Below, piece by piece: positions 7,526 through 39,343 of a stretch of 64,000 bases of DNA. Position 1 is the first letter of the stretch. Every line of letters begins with the position of its first letter. The position numbers were made by a program, and so were the translations under genes. Source of the stretch: a virus (taxonomy: Duplodnaviria > Caudoviricetes). The stretch lies in IMG/VR virus record IMGVR_UViG_3300024058_000001, positions 40,772 to 104,771 of that record, one strand, 5' to 3'. The notes under the pieces are model-generated. The model was not told where the DNA came from and made no database searches. It saw only the letters and a list, made by a program, of their open reading frames with translations.

Positions 7526-7951
7526 TTAGTTCACAACTATTCTTCCGTCTTTGTGTATTTTCATTATCCTTTTATGATTTTTTTCATTTTCGTCTGTATA
7601 TTGGAATCCTAAATAATAAACATGTTCAGGTGTACCAACTTCTACTAGATTATTTCCAAATGTTCTTGTTACTTCCCTATAATAAATAAGCCGATATTTG
7701 TAAGGATTTTTCCTTAGCATATCGGCCCTGGGCTGTAATCGTTCACTAGCAGTCTTCGCTGTTTCGATTGTTCCTTTTTCTAAGTCAACAATGTAACTAA
7801 GTCCATCAGCTTCTTGTAATCCAAAAAGCTGTAACTCATCCTGCCTTTCTAGTACATCTTTAAATAGTCTCTCTTTATCGCCTTCAAATTGATTTATTGA
7901 ACTTCCATCTTTAAACACTGCAAACCAAGGTAACGTTATCATGTTAACCAT
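7526..7951 (-). CDS. Hypothetical protein (possible assembly chaperone); start reassigned to the ATG at 7951
   Basis: GGAGG SD lies just upstream of ATG 7951. The track start at 8005 falls inside a hairpin. Confidence 0.6.
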   Translation of the reverse strand: MVNMITLPWFAVFKDGSSINQFEGDKERLFKDVLERQDELQLFGLQEADGLSYIVDLEKGTIETAKTASERLQPRADMLRKNPYKYRLIYYREVTRTFGNNLVEVGTPEHVYYLGFQYTDENEKNHKRIMKIHKDGRIVVN

Positions 7952-8523: not shown

Positions 8524-9657
8524 TTATCCTTTAAATGATACTCTTATCCGAAATCTTATATTTAAAATTCCAGATGGACTAGCACTTGTAGGAGGAGTTA
8601 TACTTAAGTTAAGAAGTTTCGCATTATTAGATGGAATAGGATTTTCAAATAAATGAACGATTTCTTGTCCAATCAGTGAAAATGTCGTTTCTGCATCGTC
8701 TTCTATTTCATATTCATAATCTATTAGTACATCTTCTGTAGCAGAAGGCAGAGCAGTTCCTAATGTAATTTCCCCTGATATTCCATCAAATGTCCCACTT
8801 GTAAAAAAGTTAGTTCCTAATCTATTAGGATCACTATTTAAAAATACACCAACAACTGCTATAAGGGGAGTATGACTAACAGTAACAGTTGTATCTGTAT
8901 CAGATGTTTGTCTTTCTAAATCTACTATTACAGGATTACTAATAATTCCGCTTGATTGTACACCAAACCAATCTTGTGATGCAACTTCTGAACCAAAGTC
9001 TTTTACATTTGGCGAATATGTTACAGTAATATTTTGAGTAGCTGGAGGGATTTTACCTGTTACTCCGTCCCCAAATGATAATAATCCACTTGCAAAACTA
9101 AATGTGTATATCTCATCCGTAGAACCAAATCCTGCTAAATTATCTACCCTTGTATATACAATTCCGCCAACTCGTACAATTAAAGGGTACAATACGTCAT
9201 CATCTAAAACAGGAGGAAATGCAACAGTAAAGGTTTGGCTTGCTGCTCCTGTACTAGCACCTTGCAATTCATCAATAAGTTCTAATGATAAAATTCGGAA
9301 TTGAATATCTCTAGCATCTACAGATTCAAAACCTCCACCTTTATCATTAAACAATTGAAAAGGATTATCAGGATGCTGAAATTCTTCTCCAGCTATTACA
9401 CCTGTAAACACTAAAGGATTGCTCTCTATACCTACCTCCACAGTTGGAGCCGTAGATGCAAATAGCTTTAAATCAGGTTCATTTTTAGTAATCTGTGCAT
9501 CAGAAAATATAGTCTCTGTAAATTCCACTAAAACTATAGAATCTGATTCAACAGTTTGAGTAGTAATAAGCTGTATTGTTGCATCAGACAGTAAATTTTG
9601 TGTTACTGTACCAAAAATAGTTGCATCTGATGTAACATTCTGCTGTACTGTAGGCAT
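8524..9657 (-). CDS. Tail/baseplate-associated protein with four N-terminal 14-aa SDAxI repeats
   Basis: N-terminal repeats, plus an internal FGDGVTGKIP motif typical of baseplate wedge-type beta domains. Confidence 0.65.
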   Translation of the reverse strand: MPTVQQNVTSDATIFGTVTQNLLSDATIQLITTQTVESDSIVLVEFTETIFSDAQITKNEPDLKLFASTAPTVEVGIESNPLVFTGVIAGEEFQHPDNPFQLFNDKGGGFESVDARDIQFRILSLELIDELQGASTGAASQTFTVAFPPVLDDDVLYPLIVRVGGIVYTRVDNLAGFGSTDEIYTFSFASGLLSFGDGVTGKIPPATQNITVTYSPNVKDFGSEVASQDWFGVQSSGIISNPVIVDLERQTSDTDTTVTVSHTPLIAVVGVFLNSDPNRLGTNFFTSGTFDGISGEITLGTALPSATEDVLIDYEYEIEDDAETTFSLIGQEIVHLFENPIPSNNAKLLNLSITPPTSASPSGILNIRFRIRVSFKG

Positions 9658-9658
9658 A

Positions 9659-10087
9659 TTAGACGTTTTGCTCCAATGTATTTGGAATTTTAATTGTTAT
9701 ATTGTAATCTTGTATATTACCATGTGTTTGTTCTTGAAATTGAATACCATCTGTTGCTATTTGTCCGTCATATCGTAAATGCCTAGTCGGGCTAAGTATA
9801 TGCAATTGCCCTGGGCCAACTTGTATTCCATTAATTAAATTATTTCTGAGTGTTTCCATATCATCCCAACTATTTGTTTTATTGAATAGAACACCCTTTA
9901 GTTCAATAGTACGTTCATTTACCCCAAGTTCTTGTACAATTGCGCCATCTAATAAAGGTACAATCAATCTAGCAGTTCGTTTACCAGGCGTAGGTCTAGT
10001 AATAAAAGGATTAGGAAAAAATGTAAATGTTCCTTGATCCCCATTAACACCTCTGCGCCATTCTACTGTTACTTTAACTGTGCTCAT
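9659..10087 (-). CDS. Distal tail (Dit)-like protein
   Basis: 142 aa immediately after the tape measure gene; tube-fold-like pattern (VPLLDGAIVQELGVNERTIELKG). Confidence 0.6.
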   Translation of the reverse strand: MSTVKVTVEWRRGVNGDQGTFTFFPNPFITRPTPGKRTARLIVPLLDGAIVQELGVNERTIELKGVLFNKTNSWDDMETLRNNLINGIQVGPGQLHILSPTRHLRYDGQIATDGIQFQEQTHGNIQDYNITIKIPNTLEQNV

Positions 10088-11733
10088 TATCCAAATGTAT
10101 CCTGTGCGCGTTCTTCTCTACCTGCATTAGTGGCCTCTCGTCTTATATTGTTTAGTTTCGTATTAACAGCAGCCTGTGCTCCCTCTCTAGTTGCTTCTTT
10201 AATATCTTCTGATGATATACTAAGATTTACTATTACATTAGATAAAGGTTTCAATGCTGCTTCGATTGCACCACCTAAAAAATCTCCAATTTCTGATCCA
10301 AGCTTTAATATACCGTCTAATCTTCCTTTAAATTTTGATAAGGATATATCAGCATCAGTAATCGCCCCGTCTACCGCAAGAAATTCGTCAAAGGATTTAG
10401 TAATAAGCTTATTTGATTCTAATTGTTGTTTAATTAAAGCAAAAAAATCTTCTCCAATTTGCTTAATAGCTTCTGTAGCAGTTAAGCCACCTTGTCTAAA
10501 ATCCTTAAATTGTTGTGCGATATCTCCAAATATTCCAGTTATACCATCTGCTCCCTTTTCTCGTTGTAGCTCTTTAAGTCTTTTTTGACGTTCTTTAAAC
10601 GTATCTTCTTCTGTTTCTGTTGTTGCTCTTATTTCATCTCTTATACCCTGTTGAAAAAATCTAAATTGATTGCCGAATTCCAATTGCTCTGCTGTTAATG
10701 TTGAAAGTCCCGCACGTTGAGCTTGTAATAATAGAGCATCTGCTTTTGTAACATCTCTAGCTAATTGTTGACGTTCTATACGGGTTTTCCCTAACCTTAA
10801 TGATTGTAACTCTAATGCTTTATTAAAATCAAATATTTTGCTAGTAGTAGAACCAATAGCATCATCAACATCTTGATTTTTAAATGCATTGACTAAAGCT
10901 TGTGCAATTCCAATAGTACCCTCACCTGAAATAAGTGCTTTTGTTGCTCCTTTTATTGCTCTTGTAAATTTAAGATTAATGACATTTGATGCTATAGCAA
11001 TATCTGTAGTAAACTTATTGAAAGCAAGTCCAGTTTTACCTGTTTCTTTATCTAGTTCGTCTTGAACATTAGCTAAAATTTGTAATTTAGAAGCTAAAGT
11101 GTCAGTTTCATCTGCTGCTGCTCCACCAAATTTTTCCGCTAATTTATCCAGCAATGTACCTTGACGAATTGCTGCCTTGATGTCTGCCCGTCTTAAGTCT
11201 GTTAATTGCAGAAGAACCCGAATATTACCTTTTTGAGCAAGATTTAATATGCGAGTTGTAGTAGTTAAATCTCGACCAGTTGCTGCAGCCACATCTTGTG
11301 CTACAATAACAGTTTTTTGTGCCTTTTCTAAGTCTCTCGTAGATTGCAACGCAATGGTAGTAGCTCGTTGTACATCTTGAACAGAAAATCTAGTGGTACG
11401 GGCCGTTTGTTCCGCACCACGTGTGATTAAAGCAGCACTCTTTTCGCTTTCTTCGCCCACTAATCGTAATTGTGTGCGTAATCGTACAAACGATGCTTCT
11501 GCAGATATTGCTTGTTGATTTGTTTTAGTAAATCCAACAGCAGCTTTTGCAATTGAAGAAACAAGAAAAATACCTGCAGCAATGCCTAGCGTTTGAGCAC
11601 TAAACGCAATAGACGCAAGAACACCCGCAAGCTTTAGCCCTGTGCCAATTACACCTTTAAAACCAGCTTTTGCAGCGTTAAAGCCTGAAGCATCAAATTT
11701 TGATGAAATTCTAAAAAGTAAACTACTAGCCAT
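10087..11733 (-). CDS. Tape measure protein
   Basis: Ala-rich helical protein after the tail chaperones; N-terminal FRISSKFDASGF and AQDVAAATGRDL motifs. Confidence 0.85.
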   Translation of the reverse strand: MASSLLFRISSKFDASGFNAAKAGFKGVIGTGLKLAGVLASIAFSAQTLGIAAGIFLVSSIAKAAVGFTKTNQQAISAEASFVRLRTQLRLVGEESEKSAALITRGAEQTARTTRFSVQDVQRATTIALQSTRDLEKAQKTVIVAQDVAAATGRDLTTTTRILNLAQKGNIRVLLQLTDLRRADIKAAIRQGTLLDKLAEKFGGAAADETDTLASKLQILANVQDELDKETGKTGLAFNKFTTDIAIASNVINLKFTRAIKGATKALISGEGTIGIAQALVNAFKNQDVDDAIGSTTSKIFDFNKALELQSLRLGKTRIERQQLARDVTKADALLLQAQRAGLSTLTAEQLEFGNQFRFFQQGIRDEIRATTETEEDTFKERQKRLKELQREKGADGITGIFGDIAQQFKDFRQGGLTATEAIKQIGEDFFALIKQQLESNKLITKSFDEFLAVDGAITDADISLSKFKGRLDGILKLGSEIGDFLGGAIEAALKPLSNVIVNLSISSEDIKEATREGAQAAVNTKLNNIRREATNAGREERAQDTFG

Positions 11734-24051: not shown

Positions 24052-25062
24052 TTAGGCTCCGACGTTTATGATTTTTCCCTGGAACGCCTCTGCGGTCAAC
24101 TGCAGAACGGTAAACTCAGCAACTAAAGTACGATAAGCGGATTGAAGTAAAGCAAGATCAATCGAAGATAGTGGCATTAAATCCACCATCTGGATTGCAT
24201 TACCATCTTCAAGAACTGTCTTGTCATCAATAACAAGAATAAAAGCATTACCCGCATCGGGAGTGATGTATCTTGAACCGATTACATCAACAACACCGAA
24301 AGGAGACAGCCAACGAGTAACCGAAATTCCCGCAGGAATATCAGCCATCGTGCCTGCACCAGCCTGGAAGAGTCTGTAAAAAGAACCCAACACAAGCTCG
24401 TTAAACTTCTGTAAGTCACGATAAGACATGACTACAGCTTGAGGCTTACCACCCACCGTTACAATATTTTGTTCGACTGTAGTAATGTCGGACAGAGCTA
24501 AAGGAGAACCAGTATTATCAAGCACGTTATCCGTGATTTGCTTTGCTAATCCATCGAATTGAAGACCAGTACCAGTGGAAGAATCTCCATTGATAATAGC
24601 CCATTCCTCCATGAGAGCAACGTTAAGCATCTTTACTTTTACTTGATGTTTCTTAATGTCAGTGTAAGTTCCACCAGCCATTTGCTCGAAGAACGAAACA
24701 TTAACGGTATCACCAAGAGAAGTATACGGAGCCGACCTAAACTTATAGTTAGGCTGACTTGCTTGAGGTAGTCCACCCTTTTCAAAAAATCCCTGTTCTG
24801 GAGCAGTACCACCCAAAAACAAATGTCCAGCAGAATCGGCTCCCGTTGAAACTGTGGGAGTCAATTGATACCAAGCATGGGCTTTTCCATTACCAGCGAT
24901 TCGATTAAAACGATTACGTAAGGGAGTATCAGTAGGAGCCATAATTGCCATTTCAGCCTGCAAGTCTTCACGGACTAGCAAAAGACCGCTAACATCTGTG
25001 GAAGAAATTGCTTTCTGAATGTCATTAATAGCTTGCTCTACTATTTGCGCGTTATAATTCAT
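24052..25062 (-). CDS. Major capsid protein (HK97 fold)
   Basis: 336 aa after the protease. APTDTPL, EEWAIINGDS and QFDGLAKQI motifs; strongest SD and 3' hairpin; probable propeptide ending at IQK|A. Confidence 0.9.
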   Translation of the reverse strand: MNYNAQIVEQAINDIQKAISSTDVSGLLLVREDLQAEMAIMAPTDTPLRNRFNRIAGNGKAHAWYQLTPTVSTGADSAGHLFLGGTAPEQGFFEKGGLPQASQPNYKFRSAPYTSLGDTVNVSFFEQMAGGTYTDIKKHQVKVKMLNVALMEEWAIINGDSSTGTGLQFDGLAKQITDNVLDNTGSPLALSDITTVEQNIVTVGGKPQAVVMSYRDLQKFNELVLGSFYRLFQAGAGTMADIPAGISVTRWLSPFGVVDVIGSRYITPDAGNAFILVIDDKTVLEDGNAIQMVDLMPLSSIDLALLQSAYRTLVAEFTVLQLTAEAFQGKIINVGA

Positions 25063-25118: not shown

Positions 25119-26195
25119 TTAAAGGGCTTTACCGAACTTAGCATCAAGCATCTTATTGACAACATTGTCTTTAAAACGCTCTTGATCGGGGGTCAACTTT
25201 GTTCCTTCTACACGCCATTTGGTTACAGTATCAATATCTTTCTGTAGAGTATTATCTACTTTACCATCAGCATCTAGACTTTTTTCAATCTTGAACTTTC
25301 TCGGCTTAGGTTGACGCATTTGCTGTTCTATCCCATCGAATCGCTTTCTCAGCGAATCCACTGCATCTACTACTTTTGATAGATCGTTCTGTGATCCATC
25401 GGCTTTCCTACTTCTTCCTGCTAAATAACCTGCACCAGCAGCAGCGCCAACTTGGGCGCGACGACTACGAACTGCACGACCTGCAATATGCGTCATAGCT
25501 GCACGTGAACGTGCTACGTCTTTTACTCTAGATGCACCAGTTTTTACTTTCCCTGCCACACTTCTCGCTTGGCCTGGAACTTTACTAGCTGCACTACGAA
25601 CTGCACCAACTGCGCGTTGTCCTACTGTGCGTCCTGCACTAATTGCGCGTTGTCCTAATTTACGACCTGCTCTAAGAGCTGCCATTGCAGCACTGCCTAA
25701 AGCTTTTTCTGTTGCTTCATCATCATCTTCATAATTCTTTTCTGTATCCTCATCGCCTTCTGGTTCCGTATCTTCATACGGATATGCACCTTCAGGATCT
25801 TGAGTTTGAGCATCTACAGTAGCGGGATGTTTACCAGGATATTTATCACCTTCGGAATCATGGCCATCTTTTTCGACCTCTTCTTCCGTTTCATCGTGAT
25901 CTTCCTTTTCAAATTCTCCCTCTACTTCTACATAATCAGCCTTTTCTGGATCGTCATCACCATATGGATAGTTGCCTTCGGCGTGTTGATTTTGTGGATC
26001 AACATCCGCAGCAGCTCCTGAATCTAAGGGATCAGTCTCCCCCAGGTCTGGATCTGATGTCGAACCTTTAGGCGTTCCTTTTGAACCCTCAATGGGTTTA
26101 TAAGCACCTTCATATGCTTTGTCGATAATATCGGCAAGATTTGTGACAACCTCTACCAATGCATCGACTTTCTTATTCAATTCATCTATTTTCAC
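25119..26195 (-). CDS. Putative nested in-frame scaffold protein (358 aa)
   Basis: GAGGAGG-N7-GTG in frame inside the protease gene, starting the coiled coil (M)KIDELNKKVDAL. Confidence 0.6.
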   Translation of the reverse strand: MKIDELNKKVDALVEVVTNLADIIDKAYEGAYKPIEGSKGTPKGSTSDPDLGETDPLDSGAAADVDPQNQHAEGNYPYGDDDPEKADYVEVEGEFEKEDHDETEEEVEKDGHDSEGDKYPGKHPATVDAQTQDPEGAYPYEDTEPEGDEDTEKNYEDDDEATEKALGSAAMAALRAGRKLGQRAISAGRTVGQRAVGAVRSAASKVPGQARSVAGKVKTGASRVKDVARSRAAMTHIAGRAVRSRRAQVGAAAGAGYLAGRSRKADGSQNDLSKVVDAVDSLRKRFDGIEQQMRQPKPRKFKIEKSLDADGKVDNTLQKDIDTVTKWRVEGTKLTPDQERFKDNVVNKMLDAKFGKAL

Positions 26196-27050
26196 GTTAT
26201 TCCCTCCTCGGTAAACGTCTTTTACATGCGATTCAAATGCAGAACCTAATACTTCTTGAGCTTTGTCAAGTACTGCATCTGTTTCTTCAGTTACTAAATT
26301 ATACTTCTCCATAGTTTCTAATGCCCGAACTGCATGAACTTTATCTGGCATTGGAATTAATCTTTCCTTTGTTACTACTGAATCTTTAACAGACTTTCTA
26401 ATAACACCAAAGTCGTCATCACTCAGTTTTTCTAATTGTTCTGTGTTTAATACTTTTCTAACCAACGAATCTGCTTTTTCTCTATGTTCCTTAACTTCTG
26501 TAAAAAGTGGATCGGTAGCTTCTGTTATAACAACTTTCTTGATATCCTCAACAATTTCTGTTTGATAAGGTATACCATTAATGCTTTTTATTAAAGAAAA
26601 AGAACATCCAGGATTTGCAGGATTATCTACTAGAGATAATTCATTAAGCTTATACTTGGTAATTCTACTAATATTTCTTGAACTACCAGTATCTAAGTCT
26701 TTAATTACTTCTTGTACCTTATTTACTGTTTGTCCACCAATAGAAAAACCATTCAAAATCCCTTCTTTAATCTTTTCCCATGTGTCACCTGCACCCTTCG
26801 ATATATAGGCTTCTATCCAAATTTTCTTAGTATCATCATTTGGAGTAATTTCTATAGCCTTGCCTACCGCTTTGGCTTCGTGCATCTCACGGATATTTCC
26901 TTGCCATTTACTAAATGCTTCCTTGCTACCATTATAGTCAACTATCTCGTTTTGTTTATCAATTTCCTCAGTAGTTGCCCAACCAGCGACTGTACGCTTT
27001 TCTGTATCTATTTTCTCAATAGGTACGTACAAATTAAACTTAGTGCTCAT
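25119..27050 (-). CDS. Prohead protease (HK97/XkdF-like) fused to a scaffold region
   Basis: IREMH (His), GFSIGG (Ser) and ELSLVDNPANP motifs; long acidic/coiled-coil C-terminal extension. Confidence 0.9.
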   Translation of the reverse strand: MSTKFNLYVPIEKIDTEKRTVAGWATTEEIDKQNEIVDYNGSKEAFSKWQGNIREMHEAKAVGKAIEITPNDDTKKIWIEAYISKGAGDTWEKIKEGILNGFSIGGQTVNKVQEVIKDLDTGSSRNISRITKYKLNELSLVDNPANPGCSFSLIKSINGIPYQTEIVEDIKKVVITEATDPLFTEVKEHREKADSLVRKVLNTEQLEKLSDDDFGVIRKSVKDSVVTKERLIPMPDKVHAVRALETMEKYNLVTEETDAVLDKAQEVLGSAFESHVKDVYRGGNNVKIDELNKKVDALVEVVTNLADIIDKAYEGAYKPIEGSKGTPKGSTSDPDLGETDPLDSGAAADVDPQNQHAEGNYPYGDDDPEKADYVEVEGEFEKEDHDETEEEVEKDGHDSEGDKYPGKHPATVDAQTQDPEGAYPYEDTEPEGDEDTEKNYEDDDEATEKALGSAAMAALRAGRKLGQRAISAGRTVGQRAVGAVRSAASKVPGQARSVAGKVKTGASRVKDVARSRAAMTHIAGRAVRSRRAQVGAAAGAGYLAGRSRKADGSQNDLSKVVDAVDSLRKRFDGIEQQMRQPKPRKFKIEKSLDADGKVDNTLQKDIDTVTKWRVEGTKLTPDQERFKDNVVNKMLDAKFGKAL

Positions 27051-32162: not shown

Positions 32163-32697
32163 TATAAGCCTCTTTTAGCGATTTATGCTTAGTCTGAAGT
32201 TGAAATAAATTTGTCGTAATTTGCGCCATTGCTTCATTATTATGCGCGTTTCTCATATGATTATAAAAAAAATGAACTAATTCGTGAAATAACACCCATT
32301 CGTCCCCATTATAAATAATGATATCTTTACCTATTAATTTATCTAAATTTACTCCTGCATGATATCTACCGTTATAAAATTTTCCGATAGCCGTAGGTGG
32401 ATCATCTAAGGTCTCGGCTAAATAAATTCTAACCTTACTATTTACTTTATCAGCCGAAAAGAATTTCTTAAGAACTCCGTACATCTGTTCTGCCGTTTCT
32501 GCATCTGCTGCATACGAAATAATATGGTCTGTTTCTTGAGTAACTTTTGTACTAACTAGATTATAATCTTTAAGTTCTATTCTAAATCTTTTACCTGGAT
32601 TAATATACAATAATATAGAATAGCAAAATAATATAACTAAAATAACTCTAATTACTATTTTTCTTAACTTAACCACTATCGTCCTCATCAAATCCAA
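32104..32697 (-). CDS. Membrane-anchored zincin-like metallopeptidase
   Basis: N-terminal TM helix; HELVH followed by a downstream E (NNEAMA). Confidence 0.6.
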   Translation of the reverse strand: MDLMRTIVVKLRKIVIRVILVILFCYSILLYINPGKRFRIELKDYNLVSTKVTQETDHIISYAADAETAEQMYGVLKKFFSADKVNSKVRIYLAETLDDPPTAIGKFYNGRYHAGVNLDKLIGKDIIIYNGDEWVLFHELVHFFYNHMRNAHNNEAMAQITTNLFQLQTKHKSLKEAYNEIDTKYRAGIISEIYETN

Positions 32698-34459
32698 TTC
32701 TTAAATCTGCGTCTATTCCTTGTTTTCTTAATTCTTTTACAGTTTTATCTACTAATTTATTTTGTTCTTTATATTTCTTTTTTCTATTAACCGAAACTTT
32801 TATAGTATTAGTACCATCTGAAATAGAGGGAGGTACCGCATTTTCCATTGTAGGACGACCTGCATCGCCATCAACTTGTTGTTCAGGTTCAGGCCCTGGT
32901 TGCAATCCAAAAGGATCGGTTCTCTCATTTTGTTGAAATCCTCGATTAGGCATACCGCCTAATTCATCAAGTTTATCAATATCTTTAACTGGAACCATAC
33001 CAACACCAGTTTTAATCATTTGTTCATCTCCGCCCTCAATGGGCTTCTTACCAAGTTTCTTTCTTCTTTCATTAATTGAAATAACACCAGAATCCATGTC
33101 AAGTCTGTCAACCTGCGATTGCTGGATATCGTCTTTTAGCTCTGCACTTTGCCATTCAAATTTTACATCCTGAAAACCAAACTCTGCCTTTACAATCTCT
33201 TCATTAAAAAAAGAAGCTAACAAATTTAAAAGTGTTTTAACTCCTCTTGCTTGTGATAGCTTTGCTTGAACTTCAGCGGTAGTACGGTGAAAGTCTAAGA
33301 CAAACCCTATGTCCTGTGGGCTTATTCCGTATACCGCGCATTTAATGGCAACTGTCCATTTTAAATATTCCATCATTTGCATGTCTCTATTAGACTGCAC
33401 ACGCATAGGAATAAAATCTAATTTGTCAGATCCTGATGTAATTAATAGTTTATGAAGACCACCTCGACCTTGTACTTCTTGTTCCCATAAATTTTGAAAC
33501 ATCTGTCGTTGGTCTTCAGATACATTTTCTCCAAGATTTAGCACACCAGGAGGAACATTAGAATTTTTAAAATAATCAATATTATATTCATCTGCATATA
33601 AACTTGCAGTAATAATATACGCAGCTACTTCTAATGGAGAAACACCATAGCCAGTTTGTTGAGGATTTTGAGATATATATAGTAATTCGTCATTTGTAAA
33701 TTCTGCACGAATTACTCCTTTATCTTCCCATACATATGCAGGTTCTGGTGCTTTAGGTATCGTTCTATCTTCATTTCTATAAATCTTTACTTCTTGTCCT
33801 GGTAATGGATAAATCTCCGCCAAATTTCCAAGATAATCATAATTTTTTACAATAACACCAGAATCGTAAATTAAAATATCATCTAAAACTAACTCTAATA
33901 ATGTTCTAAATGTTGTTTCTGTTTGATTTGGATGCTCTAAAATACACTTAACTTTGTATTTATGTTCTTCTGCATTCTGTTTAACTCGTTTTGCCCACGC
34001 CTTAAAAAACCATCTAACGGCTTCTCTTTTTGCTTTTTCATCTATAGCCTTTTCAATAATTGGAGGAAGACTACTTCGTATTTCATCTTGTATTTCTTCT
34101 GGTAAAATTTGAGATTTAAACGGAGGAAGATCATATCCATAAGGATTAAGAGAAGTTAAAATAGATTCTTCCCACCTATCCAATTCAGCCTCTAAATTAT
34201 CGGTATCAGGGACTATATCCCATTTAGTCTGACTAATAAATCCTTTTATTACTCTGCGAATAGCCCAAGTAACTGGATCAGTATTCGCTAATCGCCCTAA
34301 TGTTGCAGCACTCAGAGTAAATTGTCGCTGAACTTTTTTACCAGTGGTATTATTAAGAAATCTAAACATACCTTTGCGAGGTACGGGTTCACCACGACCT
34401 GGATCAAGCTTTAGTGCTTTACTAAAGGTATTCTGAATTTTCTTAATTAAGTTTGCCAC
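32669..34459 (-). CDS. Portal protein
   Basis: YGVSPLE, YFKNSNVPPGVL, DMQMMEY, ISPQDIG and SINERRKKLGKKPIEGGD motifs. Confidence 0.93.
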   Translation of the reverse strand: MANLIKKIQNTFSKALKLDPGRGEPVPRKGMFRFLNNTTGKKVQRQFTLSAATLGRLANTDPVTWAIRRVIKGFISQTKWDIVPDTDNLEAELDRWEESILTSLNPYGYDLPPFKSQILPEEIQDEIRSSLPPIIEKAIDEKAKREAVRWFFKAWAKRVKQNAEEHKYKVKCILEHPNQTETTFRTLLELVLDDILIYDSGVIVKNYDYLGNLAEIYPLPGQEVKIYRNEDRTIPKAPEPAYVWEDKGVIRAEFTNDELLYISQNPQQTGYGVSPLEVAAYIITASLYADEYNIDYFKNSNVPPGVLNLGENVSEDQRQMFQNLWEQEVQGRGGLHKLLITSGSDKLDFIPMRVQSNRDMQMMEYLKWTVAIKCAVYGISPQDIGFVLDFHRTTAEVQAKLSQARGVKTLLNLLASFFNEEIVKAEFGFQDVKFEWQSAELKDDIQQSQVDRLDMDSGVISINERRKKLGKKPIEGGDEQMIKTGVGMVPVKDIDKLDELGGMPNRGFQQNERTDPFGLQPGPEPEQQVDGDAGRPTMENAVPPSISDGTNTIKVSVNRKKKYKEQNKLVDKTVKELRKQGIDADLRIGFDEDDSG

Positions 34460-34862
34460 TTTTTATCACCAGTTCTATAAGGGCTATTATATTTTTATGC
34501 TCTAATAGTTCCATTTGATTTCTATATGTTTTTCTAGCTTTCTCATCTTTGACATATGTCTTAATCAAAAAATGAACAAATTCATCTAGTTCATTAAATC
34601 TTACATGTAATAATTCATGAGCAATCGTACTATCTAATTCTTTCGGAGATTCTAATAAAAGTTTTTTGTTTAGTTCTATGTCTGCGGTACGGGTTTCTTC
34701 ATCCACGTACACCGTTGCGTATGATCCGCTAATTTTATCTTTCTTTTTTATCTTGGATGGTAATACAATATCAACCTCAAATTTGTAATCACTAATCCCA
34801 AGAAGTTTAGCGTATCGCACAACTTTCTTTTTTATATCGCTTTTTAATCTTTTTTTTATCAT
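34443..34862 (-). CDS. Zincin/SprT-like metallopeptidase
   Basis: TIAHELLH motif. Confidence 0.65.
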   Translation of the reverse strand: MIKKRLKSDIKKKVVRYAKLLGISDYKFEVDIVLPSKIKKKDKISGSYATVYVDEETRTADIELNKKLLLESPKELDSTIAHELLHVRFNELDEFVHFLIKTYVKDEKARKTYRNQMELLEHKNIIALIELVIKSGKLN

Positions 34863-35126: not shown

Positions 35127-35408
35127 TTATATAATTCGTTCAGGCAACCAGGCTGAATATGCAGGTCTAACTCTTGGTGTATCTGATGCAATTTCGTTAT
35201 CAGGTTGAGTAACCCTATTAGTCATCTGATTTTGTTGGTGCTTTTGGCCGTGAACGATGTCCTCATTTTTCTTTTTTGGTCGTTTAATTCCTAAATCTTC
35301 TCTAACAAGTAAAAGTCCAGGAACATCTATAGAAGTTATTTCTTTTCTAATAGTTTGAAGTTTTCCTAAATAATCTCTAAGTTGTTCTATGAATTCCAAT
35401 TTGTTCAT
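35127..35408 (-). CDS. Small protein carrying a copy of the capsid protein N-arm
   Basis: IRKEITSIDVPGLLLVREDL versus capsid IQKAISSTDVSGLLLVREDL. Confidence 0.7.
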   Translation of the reverse strand: MNKLEFIEQLRDYLGKLQTIRKEITSIDVPGLLLVREDLGIKRPKKKNEDIVHGQKHQQNQMTNRVTQPDNEIASDTPRVRPAYSAWLPERII

Positions 35409-35412
35409 TTTA

Positions 35413-35730
35413 TTATCCTGTAAAATGGCTTATTACTCTAATTATAGTCCAACCTAGTCCTATAATTATAACTAATACTTTTAGTACAATAGACAAAAAT
35501 TCCGAAGCCCCTTGAACTTTCAATGACTTAGTTTCTAATGGCTCTAATCTCTTACCATAAGCTTTAATAGCGTTACCATTTTCTTCTATTAAATGAGGCA
35601 AATGATTTGTAACATGAGTATTTACTTCAGTAACAAGTTTGCCTAATTCAGTAACCTCATATTTAAGACCATCTACTTCATTTTCAATATGTTTTATTCT
35701 ACCTTCGTATCTATCATCTGCCATATTCAA
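35413..35730 (-). CDS. Coiled-coil protein with a C-terminal TM helix (XhlA/holin-like)
   Basis: Heptad coiled coil followed by FLSIVLKVLVIIIGLGWTII. Confidence 0.5.
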   Translation of the reverse strand: MNMADDRYEGRIKHIENEVDGLKYEVTELGKLVTEVNTHVTNHLPHLIEENGNAIKAYGKRLEPLETKSLKVQGASEFLSIVLKVLVIIIGLGWTIIRVISHFTG

Positions 35731-36075: not shown

Positions 36076-37032
36076 CTATTTAAAATAATCAAAACTAAAA
36101 CGTCTACGTCCTTCTCTTGGGCGTATTTGACGGCCATTAACTAAATAATTTCTATATGTTGCTGTATTAAGAACTTGATAAGTATTTGCTACTCTGCTAG
36201 AAACAATTTTTCCCTCATCAAATGCCCCTAACTTAGAATCAAAATAATAAACTAAATCGCCTGGTTTAAATCGACGAAATATTCTAAACTGTTTATCTAT
36301 AGCATTATCTCTCTTACTTGTCTTTGAACGTCTTTTACCAGCAGCATAGCCTGCTGCAGGCAATGCACTTATACCTGCTATACGCGCTGTTTTACCTGCA
36401 ATTCTTCTTTTACCTGCACGTGTACCCATACTTTGTCTAAATGTTTCTGCTTTATACCTTTGTTTACGTCCTATATTACGTACCTTAACTCCTACTGAAC
36501 CTAATTTACGTCCTATTGTAGAGACTGCACTAGCTATTCCTTTTTTTGTATTTACATTTGCAGTTGTTTCAATTCCTCTTTCATCTGACATTACAACAGG
36601 AACCTTTTCATAGCCAAGTTCTTTAAGAGCTACAAATCTATGATGACCATCTGTTACCATTTTACCAGGTTTTCCATCATGGTCAATTTCGGTATAAACT
36701 AATGGTTTAATATCTCCACTAATTTTAATAGCGTGTTTTATTTTGTCTACCTTGTTTCGGTCTAATGTTCTATTATATGGATTTGGAAGCAACTCAGAAA
36801 TGTTAATTTCTTCTATTTTTATCTTTACCATTCTTCCCCATTGACTATTTCCGCGATGCTCACTTCTAGGGCCAATGGCAGAAGATCCTTCACTCGAAGG
36901 ATTAAAATTAAAACCTTCTGCTTCAGGCGGATTAGTGCTAATAGCAGGAAATCTATATTCCCGTGTTTCAGCCTTATTTATCTGCCTAGTTAAATCTCTT
37001 AGTTGAGTCCATGTTTTCATATTTGTTATCAT
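36076..37032 (-). CDS. Modular protein: leader, ParB/Srx domain, cationic amphipathic unit and SH3-like domain
   Basis: PNPYN...VTDGHHRFVALKELG (ParB); TKK|GIASAVSTIGRKLG...; FKPGDLVYY. Confidence 0.7.
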   Translation of the reverse strand: MITNMKTWTQLRDLTRQINKAETREYRFPAISTNPPEAEGFNFNPSSEGSSAIGPRSEHRGNSQWGRMVKIKIEEINISELLPNPYNRTLDRNKVDKIKHAIKISGDIKPLVYTEIDHDGKPGKMVTDGHHRFVALKELGYEKVPVVMSDERGIETTANVNTKKGIASAVSTIGRKLGSVGVKVRNIGRKQRYKAETFRQSMGTRAGKRRIAGKTARIAGISALPAAGYAAGKRRSKTSKRDNAIDKQFRIFRRFKPGDLVYYFDSKLGAFDEGKIVSSRVANTYQVLNTATYRNYLVNGRQIRPREGRRRFSFDYFK

Positions 37033-37042
37033 CTTGTAATCT

Positions 37043-39343
37043 TTAAATTATTCGTGTTTTAGTTCTAGCAGCAAGATTTCTAACCCTTCCCAAATCTCGA
37101 TATGTTTTGGATCTTGTAGCTGCCTGTGCTCTGCCAATTTGTTTAATTCTTCCTAATTGTTGAACCTGCTGTCCCATCATTTGCCCAATTTGTTTTCTTT
37201 CTCTAACTATTCTATTGTATTGTGCATTAAGTGAAGGCTTCTTTATTTTTTGTCCTATTGAACGTATTTTACGTCCTACTGCACGTGCTGCACTGCCTAT
37301 ACCTTTTTCTGTATCTTCTGTAATACCATTCCAACCGCATCGTTTTCTTAAATTCTTTAATTCCTTTTTAATATTTTGTAATTCCATTACCTTTTTTCTT
37401 TTCTTACGTCCGTATGCTGACTTCATCCTATATCCCATCATTCTAGCTCCTGCAGTTCCTACCTTTATACCCAAATTTCTTCTACGAGCACCTTTTGGCA
37501 ATTTTCCTGCTGCGATACGAGACAAAGCTCCACCAGGACGTTTTAGTTCCGCTTTAGCACCAGCGTCAAGACCTATATTTATTAATTTATTACCTACACG
37601 TCTAACAACAGATCCCACTTTAGATCGTAAACCTTTTTCTGTATCACCATTTTTCAAATTATCTAGTTTCTTTTTAACATCTGTAATAGATACTACCTTA
37701 TAACTTTTCTTAGGTTTACCAAACGCGCCTAAACTATGTGCAAGATAACTACCTTCTGCAACAGGAAGGGCCACTCTTGCTACTCGTCCCACACGTGTTC
37801 TTCCAAATTTAGCTCCTGCACGTTGGGCTGATAATCCTGCTCTACTTCTTACTCCGCGTGTTCCTTTCCATCCTGCTTTTGTTCCTGAAATTAACTTAGG
37901 AGCTAACTTTCTGCCTATTGCTAACGCTCCACGTCCTGCAGCTACCAAAGCAGCTCCATATTTTTCTACATCCTCTGTATCATCCATATCTTTTTCTATA
38001 TCTGCCATTTGGTCAACTTTATCAAAAAGCTCCATAATATCATTTAGTTCTTCAGGAACTAAATACTTTATCAGTTCCTGTTGTTCTACTGGAGATGCAA
38101 ATTCCAACATGTCAATGATCTCAGCAATACTAAAATCTTTAGATAAATCCTTTGTTTGTGCACTTTTTTCTCTAAATACTCTGCCTAACAATCCTGATCC
38201 AGGTGTGTGAGCAACTGTTGTTACAGGTTTTGATGCACCAATGGCATCTCTTATTTTGCCAGTTCTAAAATCTTTAATTCCTCCACCTAAAGTTTGAGTT
38301 GTATATACTCTGTTTACTGGAATTTTTCCTACGTAAGTCTTTATTTTACCTCCAAGTTGCCTTAGCCTCTTTATACCAGCACGTCTAGTCGCTGGATGTG
38401 CTAACGCAGCAATAGCACCAAGACCTGCAGCAGCACCCGCAATACGGCCAGCTTTACCACGTTTAGAACCTTGCTCTGCTTTATTAATAATTTCCATATG
38501 ACCTTTAGGATCGTCACACCATATTTTTTGTAATGAACCATCTGAACTTACCTTAGTAACAGAAACACCTTTCATTGCAGGTAAACCAAATGTTGGCTCA
38601 ACTGGTTGTCCTGGTTGTCTTAATGGCCCAGGCACTTGCGCTTCTTCTGGTTCTACAGGTGCTTCAGGTACTTCAGGAACACCACCAGGTTCAACACTAG
38701 TATCTACTTGTCCTTTACAATGTGGACAAACTACTTGTAAGGGTTTTGCTTCTTCTGGAGTTTCCGCAGATTCCTCAACATCTTCTTGAGGTTCCTCTTC
38801 TGGAAGTTCTTCTTCTCCTTCAGATCCACCAAATTCTCCTGTTTCTAAATCTTCAGGAACTTCCTCTGCAGATTCGTCTTGAGGCTCTTCAATTACTTCC
38901 CCATTTTCATCAACAACATCTTCTTCTTTTTCTTCCTCTTCGGGCAAACGCTCTTGTGGGTCATTAGCGTTAGTTGTAGCTATTTGTTCACCAGGTTGTT
39001 CAGCTTGTCCTTGCATTTCTTGATCTGTCTGAGGATTTATATTATCTTCTACAGGTTTATCTAATACCTGTTCAGCCGTAGATTCTACCACTTCTTTTTC
39101 TTTAGGTGGTAACGCATTTTCTAATTCTTCTAACTCTTCTGGAGACATATTAGCCAATATGCCCTTTTTAATTTCATTATCAAACTCTTGTTTGCCAACA
39201 TCGATTCTACCCTTGCTCGTAAATACATGAACGATTTTCTTTTGGGTTTCAGTTGTAACTTCACCCTTTTTAATAGCGTCCAAGTCAGCTTGGGTAAAGT
39301 CAAATCGTTGACCCTTTACCACGATTGTATACACTTTACTCAT
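37043..39343 (-). CDS. Putative virion polyprotein with acidic spacers and four cationic amphipathic units
   Basis: Glu/Pro-rich region, then units starting after IINK, DVEK, DTEK and DTEK. Confidence 0.7.
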   Translation of the reverse strand: MSKVYTIVVKGQRFDFTQADLDAIKKGEVTTETQKKIVHVFTSKGRIDVGKQEFDNEIKKGILANMSPEELEELENALPPKEKEVVESTAEQVLDKPVEDNINPQTDQEMQGQAEQPGEQIATTNANDPQERLPEEEEKEEDVVDENGEVIEEPQDESAEEVPEDLETGEFGGSEGEEELPEEEPQEDVEESAETPEEAKPLQVVCPHCKGQVDTSVEPGGVPEVPEAPVEPEEAQVPGPLRQPGQPVEPTFGLPAMKGVSVTKVSSDGSLQKIWCDDPKGHMEIINKAEQGSKRGKAGRIAGAAAGLGAIAALAHPATRRAGIKRLRQLGGKIKTYVGKIPVNRVYTTQTLGGGIKDFRTGKIRDAIGASKPVTTVAHTPGSGLLGRVFREKSAQTKDLSKDFSIAEIIDMLEFASPVEQQELIKYLVPEELNDIMELFDKVDQMADIEKDMDDTEDVEKYGAALVAAGRGALAIGRKLAPKLISGTKAGWKGTRGVRSRAGLSAQRAGAKFGRTRVGRVARVALPVAEGSYLAHSLGAFGKPKKSYKVVSITDVKKKLDNLKNGDTEKGLRSKVGSVVRRVGNKLINIGLDAGAKAELKRPGGALSRIAAGKLPKGARRRNLGIKVGTAGARMMGYRMKSAYGRKKRKKVMELQNIKKELKNLRKRCGWNGITEDTEKGIGSAARAVGRKIRSIGQKIKKPSLNAQYNRIVRERKQIGQMMGQQVQQLGRIKQIGRAQAATRSKTYRDLGRVRNLAARTKTRII

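Follow-up and report, generated by a model that had tools for sequence, protein, structure and literature searches.

To our knowledge, how accessory proteins enter the phage head has been worked out closely in only a few cases, for example T4 with its capsid targeting sequence (CTS) and P1 with its Dar proteins. The T4 internal proteins IPI-III and Alt have an N-terminal CTS; this signal brings otherwise diverse proteins into the scaffold core, and the prohead protease clips it off. The cargo varies and can be dispensed with, and a short targeting sequence at the N-terminus is all that foreign proteins need to be loaded into the head (PMC3012670). P1 DarA/Hdf, an accessory protein inside the head, is trimmed at its N-terminus by the prohead protease that also processes the major capsid protein (MCP), and it is anchored on the inner shell surface, touching the DNA (PMC12810830). 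Mimicry of an assembly contact, redirecting capsid size, is known from 80alpha and the SaPI1 protein CpmB (PMC5644958). Capsid-protein N-terminal regions, for their part, contact the scaffold core in the unexpanded heads of T4, P22, T7, SPP1 and 80alpha, and N-arms form inter-capsomer contacts in mature heads (PMC9546572).

Here we describe a 93-aa protein of an uncultured phage that carries a copy of the N-arm tip of the phage's own MCP. It is encoded at 35127-35408 (-) of the window (the whole 64,000-nt stretch analyzed, part of a complete 104,771-bp record with direct terminal repeats) and consists of a leader, the capsid-arm copy, a basic linker and a C-terminal motif. On our best reading of its sequence, it represents a new instance among protease-processed, head-targeted accessory proteins, with both processing and targeting proposed here.

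The capsid-arm copy and its original

Residues 17 to 39 of the 93-aa protein align with MCP residues 12 to 34 with 15 of 23 positions identical (BLASTP, E 5e-7). The initial annotation had located a mimic of the MCP N-terminus here, and both the resemblance and its coordinates are correct: 35292-35351 encodes residues I20-L39 of the small protein and 24961-25020 encodes residues I15-L34 of the MCP. These two, MCP and small ORF, are the only capsid-arm copies in the whole 104.8-kb genome, and the rest of the 93-aa ORF showed no further resemblance when compared with the MCP, as expected if the remainder is unrelated to capsid. Profile-profile comparison of 18 small proteins with 51 MCPs gave an ungapped match of 31 columns between small-protein positions 10 to 40 and MCP positions 5 to 35 (probability 96.2%, E 2.2e-9), and the likeness therefore extends into the leader helix. 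An HMM of the small family on its own also matches every MCP of the clade (E 1e-8 to 1e-5). Across all ORFs, iterated and profile searches returned the small family, other ORFs bearing the module, and MCPs, and never the protease-scaffold protein described below. At the nucleotide level, the run G-L-L-L-V-R-E-D-L has the same nine residues in the small protein and the MCP, while 8 of its 27 bases and seven of its nine codons differ between the two genes, every difference being synonymous; over the full 57-nt module, 38 of 57 nucleotides are identical. So many synonymous changes point to an old homology kept at the protein level, as had been proposed, and not to a recent DNA duplication.

The two segments are also constrained alike at each position of the shared motif, G-L-x-L-[VT]-R-[EQ]-D-L. 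Its glycine is present in 18 of 18 small proteins and 47 of 51 MCPs, the second leucine of G-L-x-L in 17/18 and 51/51, and the arginine in every member of both sets (18/18 and 51/51), with x free in both families. Ahead of the glycine, a valine is present in 17/18 small proteins and 49/51 MCPs. The next position after G-L-x-L is V or T throughout both families, the [EQ] position holds 15 E and 3 Q in the small family and 42 E and 9 Q in the MCPs, and the aspartate and final leucine occur in all members of both; within the MCPs, L29, R31, D33 and L34 are invariant (51/51). Upstream, a lysine stands five residues before the conserved serine of the segment (small family, 18/18; MCP, 43/51), preceded two positions earlier (P3) by a hydrophobic residue in both families. 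Without a common partner that reads the two segments, such equal column-by-column constraints would be difficult to account for. Judged by sequence, copy and MCP segment are homologous and under the same residue-by-residue constraints, and the conservation pattern argues against the copy being neutral. Co-variation between each copy and its own MCP, scored against permuted pairings, is uninformative in a motif that hardly varies in the MCP: 2,236 of 5,040 permutations reach the observed score.

The MCP itself (24052-25062, -; 336 aa) is an HK97-fold protein of Pfam family SU10_MCP (PF17236; E 1.4e-14, 54.7 bits against a cut-off of 24.1). Its AlphaFold2 model, for which we used an alignment of 51 sequences (pLDDT 76) in place of one of 14 sequences (pLDDT 43), resembles the capsid proteins of SPO1 (Z 22.1), HK97 (Z 19.9) and SU10 (Z 19.1). 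Model and alignment place the original of the copy, K17 plus residues 18 to 34, at the tip of the N-arm (24961-25014, -): a helix spanning residues 5 to 17 ends at K17, residues 18 to 30 form a low-confidence coil, and the following helix starts at R31. Position 11 of the Pfam profile aligns to MCP residue 28, implying that this MCP has about 17 extra residues ahead of the family profile. The capsid chains of SU10, which are ordered from residue 4 to 6, align from the start of the MCP model, suggesting that the copied segment belongs to the mature arm. Together, the extra helix, the Pfam offset and the order in SU10 put the segment in the mature N-arm of the HK97 fold, where it had first been assigned, and make it plausible that the MCP loses a 17-residue leader. 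PDB sequence searches did not align the MCP N-terminus, and the SU10 paper makes no statement on whether that N-terminus is processed.

In several relatives, the MCP gene is interrupted directly after the shared segment (L017:9049-10245; L008 near 7808; L029 near 12257). The L017 gene carries an insert of about 0.9 kb with a 238-aa LAGLIDADG-type ORF (9166-9882) and, some 25 codons further on, a group I intron (Rfam RF00028, 65.9 bits, 10028-10229); in P0103, another relative's protein, the gene call joins an MCP to an HNH domain.

Anatomy, neighborhood and presumed processing of the small protein

The 93-aa ORF is a real, conserved gene. As part of a tight operon, it is separated from the upstream gene by 4 nt and from the downstream gene by 2 nt, and its relatives, found by word-based and exhaustive profile searches and via loci around portal genes, form about 15 clusters at 50% identity, with 85 to 100 residues each, plus long forms of 165 to 339 residues in which an insert separates the capsid copy from the C-motif. 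Two candidates from the profile search, P0013 and P0019, are repetitive, unrelated proteins and were not counted as family members. In every locus examined the gene order is HAD-like, XhlA-like, small, MazG-like, HExxH (SprT-like), portal, and the small gene lies two to three genes upstream of the portal gene (here 32669-34459, -; Phage_portal, E 1.8e-33); the most divergent short member and one long form keep this same distance.

The neighboring genes have features of their own. The XhlA-like ("hemolysin," phrog_937) protein directly upstream of the small gene (35413-35730, -) has a C-terminal membrane segment and, inside the head module, keeps its position in relatives. The 139-aa HExxH protein (34443-34862, -) matches SprT-like proteins weakly, shares 17 nt with the start of the portal gene, keeps its position in nearly all relatives, and could be a further protease of the head module. 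Among the long forms of the small family, for which Pfam gave no match, P0015 and P0017 (= L002:819-1880) have in common an insert of about 80 residues with no Pfam or Atlas match, which may be a cargo domain.

Four parts can be distinguished in the small protein. The leader (residues 1 to 22; 35343..35408, -) is an amphipathic helix whose last residue, K22, stands in an [LIF]-x-K context; all 18 small proteins have both L10 and K22, and P3 is L, I or F in every one. The capsid-arm copy follows (residues 23 to 39; 35292..35342, -), ending in the shared motif. Next, according to the sequence and the family alignment, comes a glycine with a Lys/Arg-rich linker (residues 40 to 52; 35253..35291, -); G40 is present in 15 of 18 small proteins, basic residues come next in nearly all members, and a basic run likewise follows the copy in the carriers from L018, L032 and L035. 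The C-terminal motif (residues 53 to 93; 35130..35252, -) reads H-G-Q-K-H ... T-x-P(-x-G) ... S-D-x-P, with G54, Q55 and P69 invariant among the 18, and an HMM made for this module alone picks it up both in the long forms and in members that have no capsid copy. For the 93-aa protein, disorder is predicted (Atlas model, pLDDT 0.38), which would suit a peptide that takes on its fold when bound to a partner; the ESM Atlas returned no usable match for the protein or for the long-form insert.

The lysine that the initial annotation took as the cleavage site is K22 in the small protein; its counterpart in the MCP is K17, P3 being hydrophobic in both, and we presume from this alignment that K22 is a site of the prohead protease. 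The presumed enzyme is a 643-aa prohead protease-scaffold fusion (25119-27050, -; Peptidase_S78; phrog_9427 head maturation protease, E 9.5e-39), which may serve the shared segment as protease, docking partner or both. At the end of its protease domain, this protein has the context L-I-K|S-I, which is conserved in L017 and L029; in the scaffold proteins of relatives, the Lys-site context is consistent only at this protease-domain border. Similar [ILV]-x-K contexts are located at domain borders of other head-module proteins, and the form in which a small residue and Ile/Leu follow the lysine precedes Gly/Ala/Arg-rich stretches in the protease-scaffold, in a ParB-like protein and in ORF 37043-39343. 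That ORF (-; 766 aa) has a very acidic N-terminal half and several cationic Gly/Ala/Arg-rich stretches, each after ...T/V-E-K; stretches of this kind also occur in the ParB_N-like protein (36076-37032, -) and inside the protease-scaffold, and they resemble polyprotein cassettes. By BLASTP, these stretches of the ParB-like protein show no significant likeness to those of the scaffold.

Taken together, the sequence comparisons lead us to propose that the 93-aa protein is an accessory head-module protein in which the copy of the capsid N-arm tip acts as an address label, loading a processed basic peptide into the prohead; we give this proposal an even chance of being right. The N-terminal region of an HK97-fold capsid protein would face inward in the prohead and contact the scaffold/protease core, and a free copy would therefore be recognized by whatever reads the MCP arm, in all likelihood the 643-aa protease-scaffold; more broadly, the reader could be the scaffold, the protease or a neighboring capsid subunit. 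The small protein would thereby be recruited into the assembling prohead, where the prohead protease would cut it after K22, as it would the MCP after K17, and remove the leader. The predicted product of about 70 residues would begin with the capsid-like end, continue with the basic linker and finish with the conserved C-motif, and it would stay in the head next to shell and DNA, from where it may be delivered with the DNA. Against this reading, conservation peaks 9 to 17 residues beyond the presumed cut, farther than a protease site by itself would require.

Distribution of the copy among relatives and alternative roles

The copy behaves as a portable module, since related phages carry it on several proteins that have nothing else in common. 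The syntenic gene of L030, L031 and L033 keeps the leader and the C-motif without the capsid-like segment, and in L034 and the complete genome G003 (L046:1198-1533, -) the segment has decayed in the syntenic gene. In L032, the syntenic gene likewise has no copy, and a separate 76-residue ORF (7605-7832) consists of leader, copy and basic tail. The copy stands at the C-terminal end of a 158-residue protein in L035. In L018-L021 and genome G004 it is found inside a highly charged polyprotein whose gene immediately precedes that of the portal (L018:1-2220, +; extended to ~830 aa in G004), at residues ~419 to 440, preceded by I-N-K and followed by glycine and a basic run and then by two helical repeats of about 100 residues; Pfam has no family for the L018 polyprotein. 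Three complete relatives, G001 to G003, have no copy beyond the MCP itself, which the same search detected in each. The motif was initially expected to be conserved in homologs of the small ORF; this is true of the 18 aligned members and the long forms, whereas in L030-L034 and G003 it is lost or decayed. The leader and C-motif are conserved even where the copy is lost, so that the core job of the gene is independent of the copy, a point against our reading. A segment that is lost, absent or moved among relatives is unlike a building part of the portal vertex and like a tag on accessory cargo.

The initial annotation had offered three roles for the copy: supplying an N-arm strand at the portal vertex, anchoring cargo to the inner shell, or regulating capsid assembly or size. 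Anchoring or loading of cargo fits best. A regulatory role would take the form of a decoy or timer, in which the copy competes for the prohead protease or scaffold and so tunes MCP processing, assembly or head size without becoming a lasting virion component. We judge this unlikely. In its favor, the copy is under the same constraints as the MCP segment, the leader and Lys context align with those of the MCP, an accessory distribution suits a regulator, and the CpmB precedent described above shows that mimicry of an assembly contact can redirect capsid size. However, a pure decoy leaves the basic linker and the conserved C-motif without a role, and the occurrence of the copy in a large charged polyprotein and on other proteins looks like cargo tagging.

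A strand at the portal vertex is more doubtful still. Here the cut, capsid-like end would dock in the groove of capsid subunits that normally takes up the N-arm of a neighbor. It would occupy such grooves where they are vacant around the portal vertex, and the basic part and C-motif would point toward portal or DNA. That the segment belongs to the HK97-fold N-arm, with equivalent residues ordered in the mature SU10 capsid, and that the small gene always lies so close upstream of the portal gene would suit such a strand, as would the inter-capsomer contacts that N-arms form in mature heads. A structural part of this kind should be universal wherever this MCP and portal occur, yet the copy is accessory: G001 to G003 have the same MCP motif and a homologous portal without an extra copy, the copy has decayed in the syntenic gene of other relatives, and it sits on different proteins in different relatives. 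The suggested portal-vertex role is thus disfavored.

Finally, we consider it very improbable that the copy is a functionless relic of a 5' capsid-gene piece recombined into the small gene, for instance with intron homing at the adjacent site, an origin with which the mobile introns directly after the segment in relatives' MCP genes (L017, with L008 and L029 also interrupted) and the loss of the copy in several lineages would agree, but which is at odds with an identical peptide written in seven different codons out of nine, with the retention of the copy in 18 members down to 38% overall identity at the same invariant positions as in the MCP, and with its recurrence on other proteins.

Comparison with known head-targeting systems

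An address label on an accessory head protein, as we propose for the 93-aa protein, would resemble the T4 CTS in function. The T4 CTS does not copy the capsid protein, however, whereas the label proposed here is a capsid-arm copy that would be mostly retained on the presumed product. Nor does the 93-aa ORF show a T4-type CTS with a Leu/Ile-x-Glu site: it has no Pfam or PHROG match, and its aligned site is [LIF]-x-K. P1 DarA offers a parallel for an accessory protein cut by the prohead protease; unlike the 93-aa protein, it is large and folded, no capsid-arm copy has been reported in it, and the two have no sequence relationship. SaPI1 CpmB is alike in being a small extra protein that mimics a short capsid-assembly contact motif (PMC5644958). 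CpmB comes from a phage parasite and copies the capsid-binding C-terminus of the 80alpha scaffold, whereas here the phage itself copies the capsid side; the searches, which never matched the protease-scaffold, gave no sign that the 93-aa protein is a scaffold mimic of the CpmB type.

The closest parallel is T4 gp61.1, a 54-aa protein annotated as hypothetical for which a literature search found no functional study. Comparison of the two T4 loci (L047:367-531, -; L050:46-501, +) showed that residues 2 to 38 of gp61.1 match residues 57 to 93 of gp23 (46% identical, E 1e-9) and are followed by a Lys-rich tail. We take its first ten residues to resemble the leader of the T4 internal proteins. The maturation cut of gp23 after residue 65 (PMC9546572) falls inside the 57-93 match, and the gp61.1 copy covers the first ~28 residues of the mature gp23 N-terminus. 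Like the 93-aa protein, gp61.1 thus combines a short leader, a copy of the phage's own capsid protein around and after the maturation cut (a presumed cut in the phage described here) and a Lys/Arg-rich stretch. The machinery differs: T4 has gp23 and gp21 with a Glu-type site, whereas this phage has an SU10/SPO1-like MCP and an S78-type protease-scaffold with a presumed Lys-type site. The 93-aa protein, unlike gp61.1, has an added conserved C-motif, and its gene is found beside the portal gene and not the primase gene. A PHROG scan of the 93-aa ORF that covers the gp61.1 families (phrog_1823 and phrog_2086) found no family at E 0.01, and this, together with the different capsid and protease lineage, suggests that the small protein is an independent instance, an analogue, of the gp61.1 design.

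It is tempting, if still rather speculative, to see freestanding copies of the newly cut capsid N-arm with a basic tail as a device that tailed phages use generally and have evolved on more than one occasion, a portable "capsid-self" tag docking peptides or cargo to the scaffold core or inner shell. If so, a capsid-arm label would be a simple and evolvable route into the head, working with a partner that already reads the capsid protein. Searching genome by genome for MCP-arm copies would then predict internal or ejected proteins of uncultured phages, and a capsid-arm copy could be used as a tag to load designed cargo into capsids. It is the same layout in two unrelated capsid and protease lineages, T4 gp61.1 on the one hand and the 93-aa protein on the other, that points to such a general rule.
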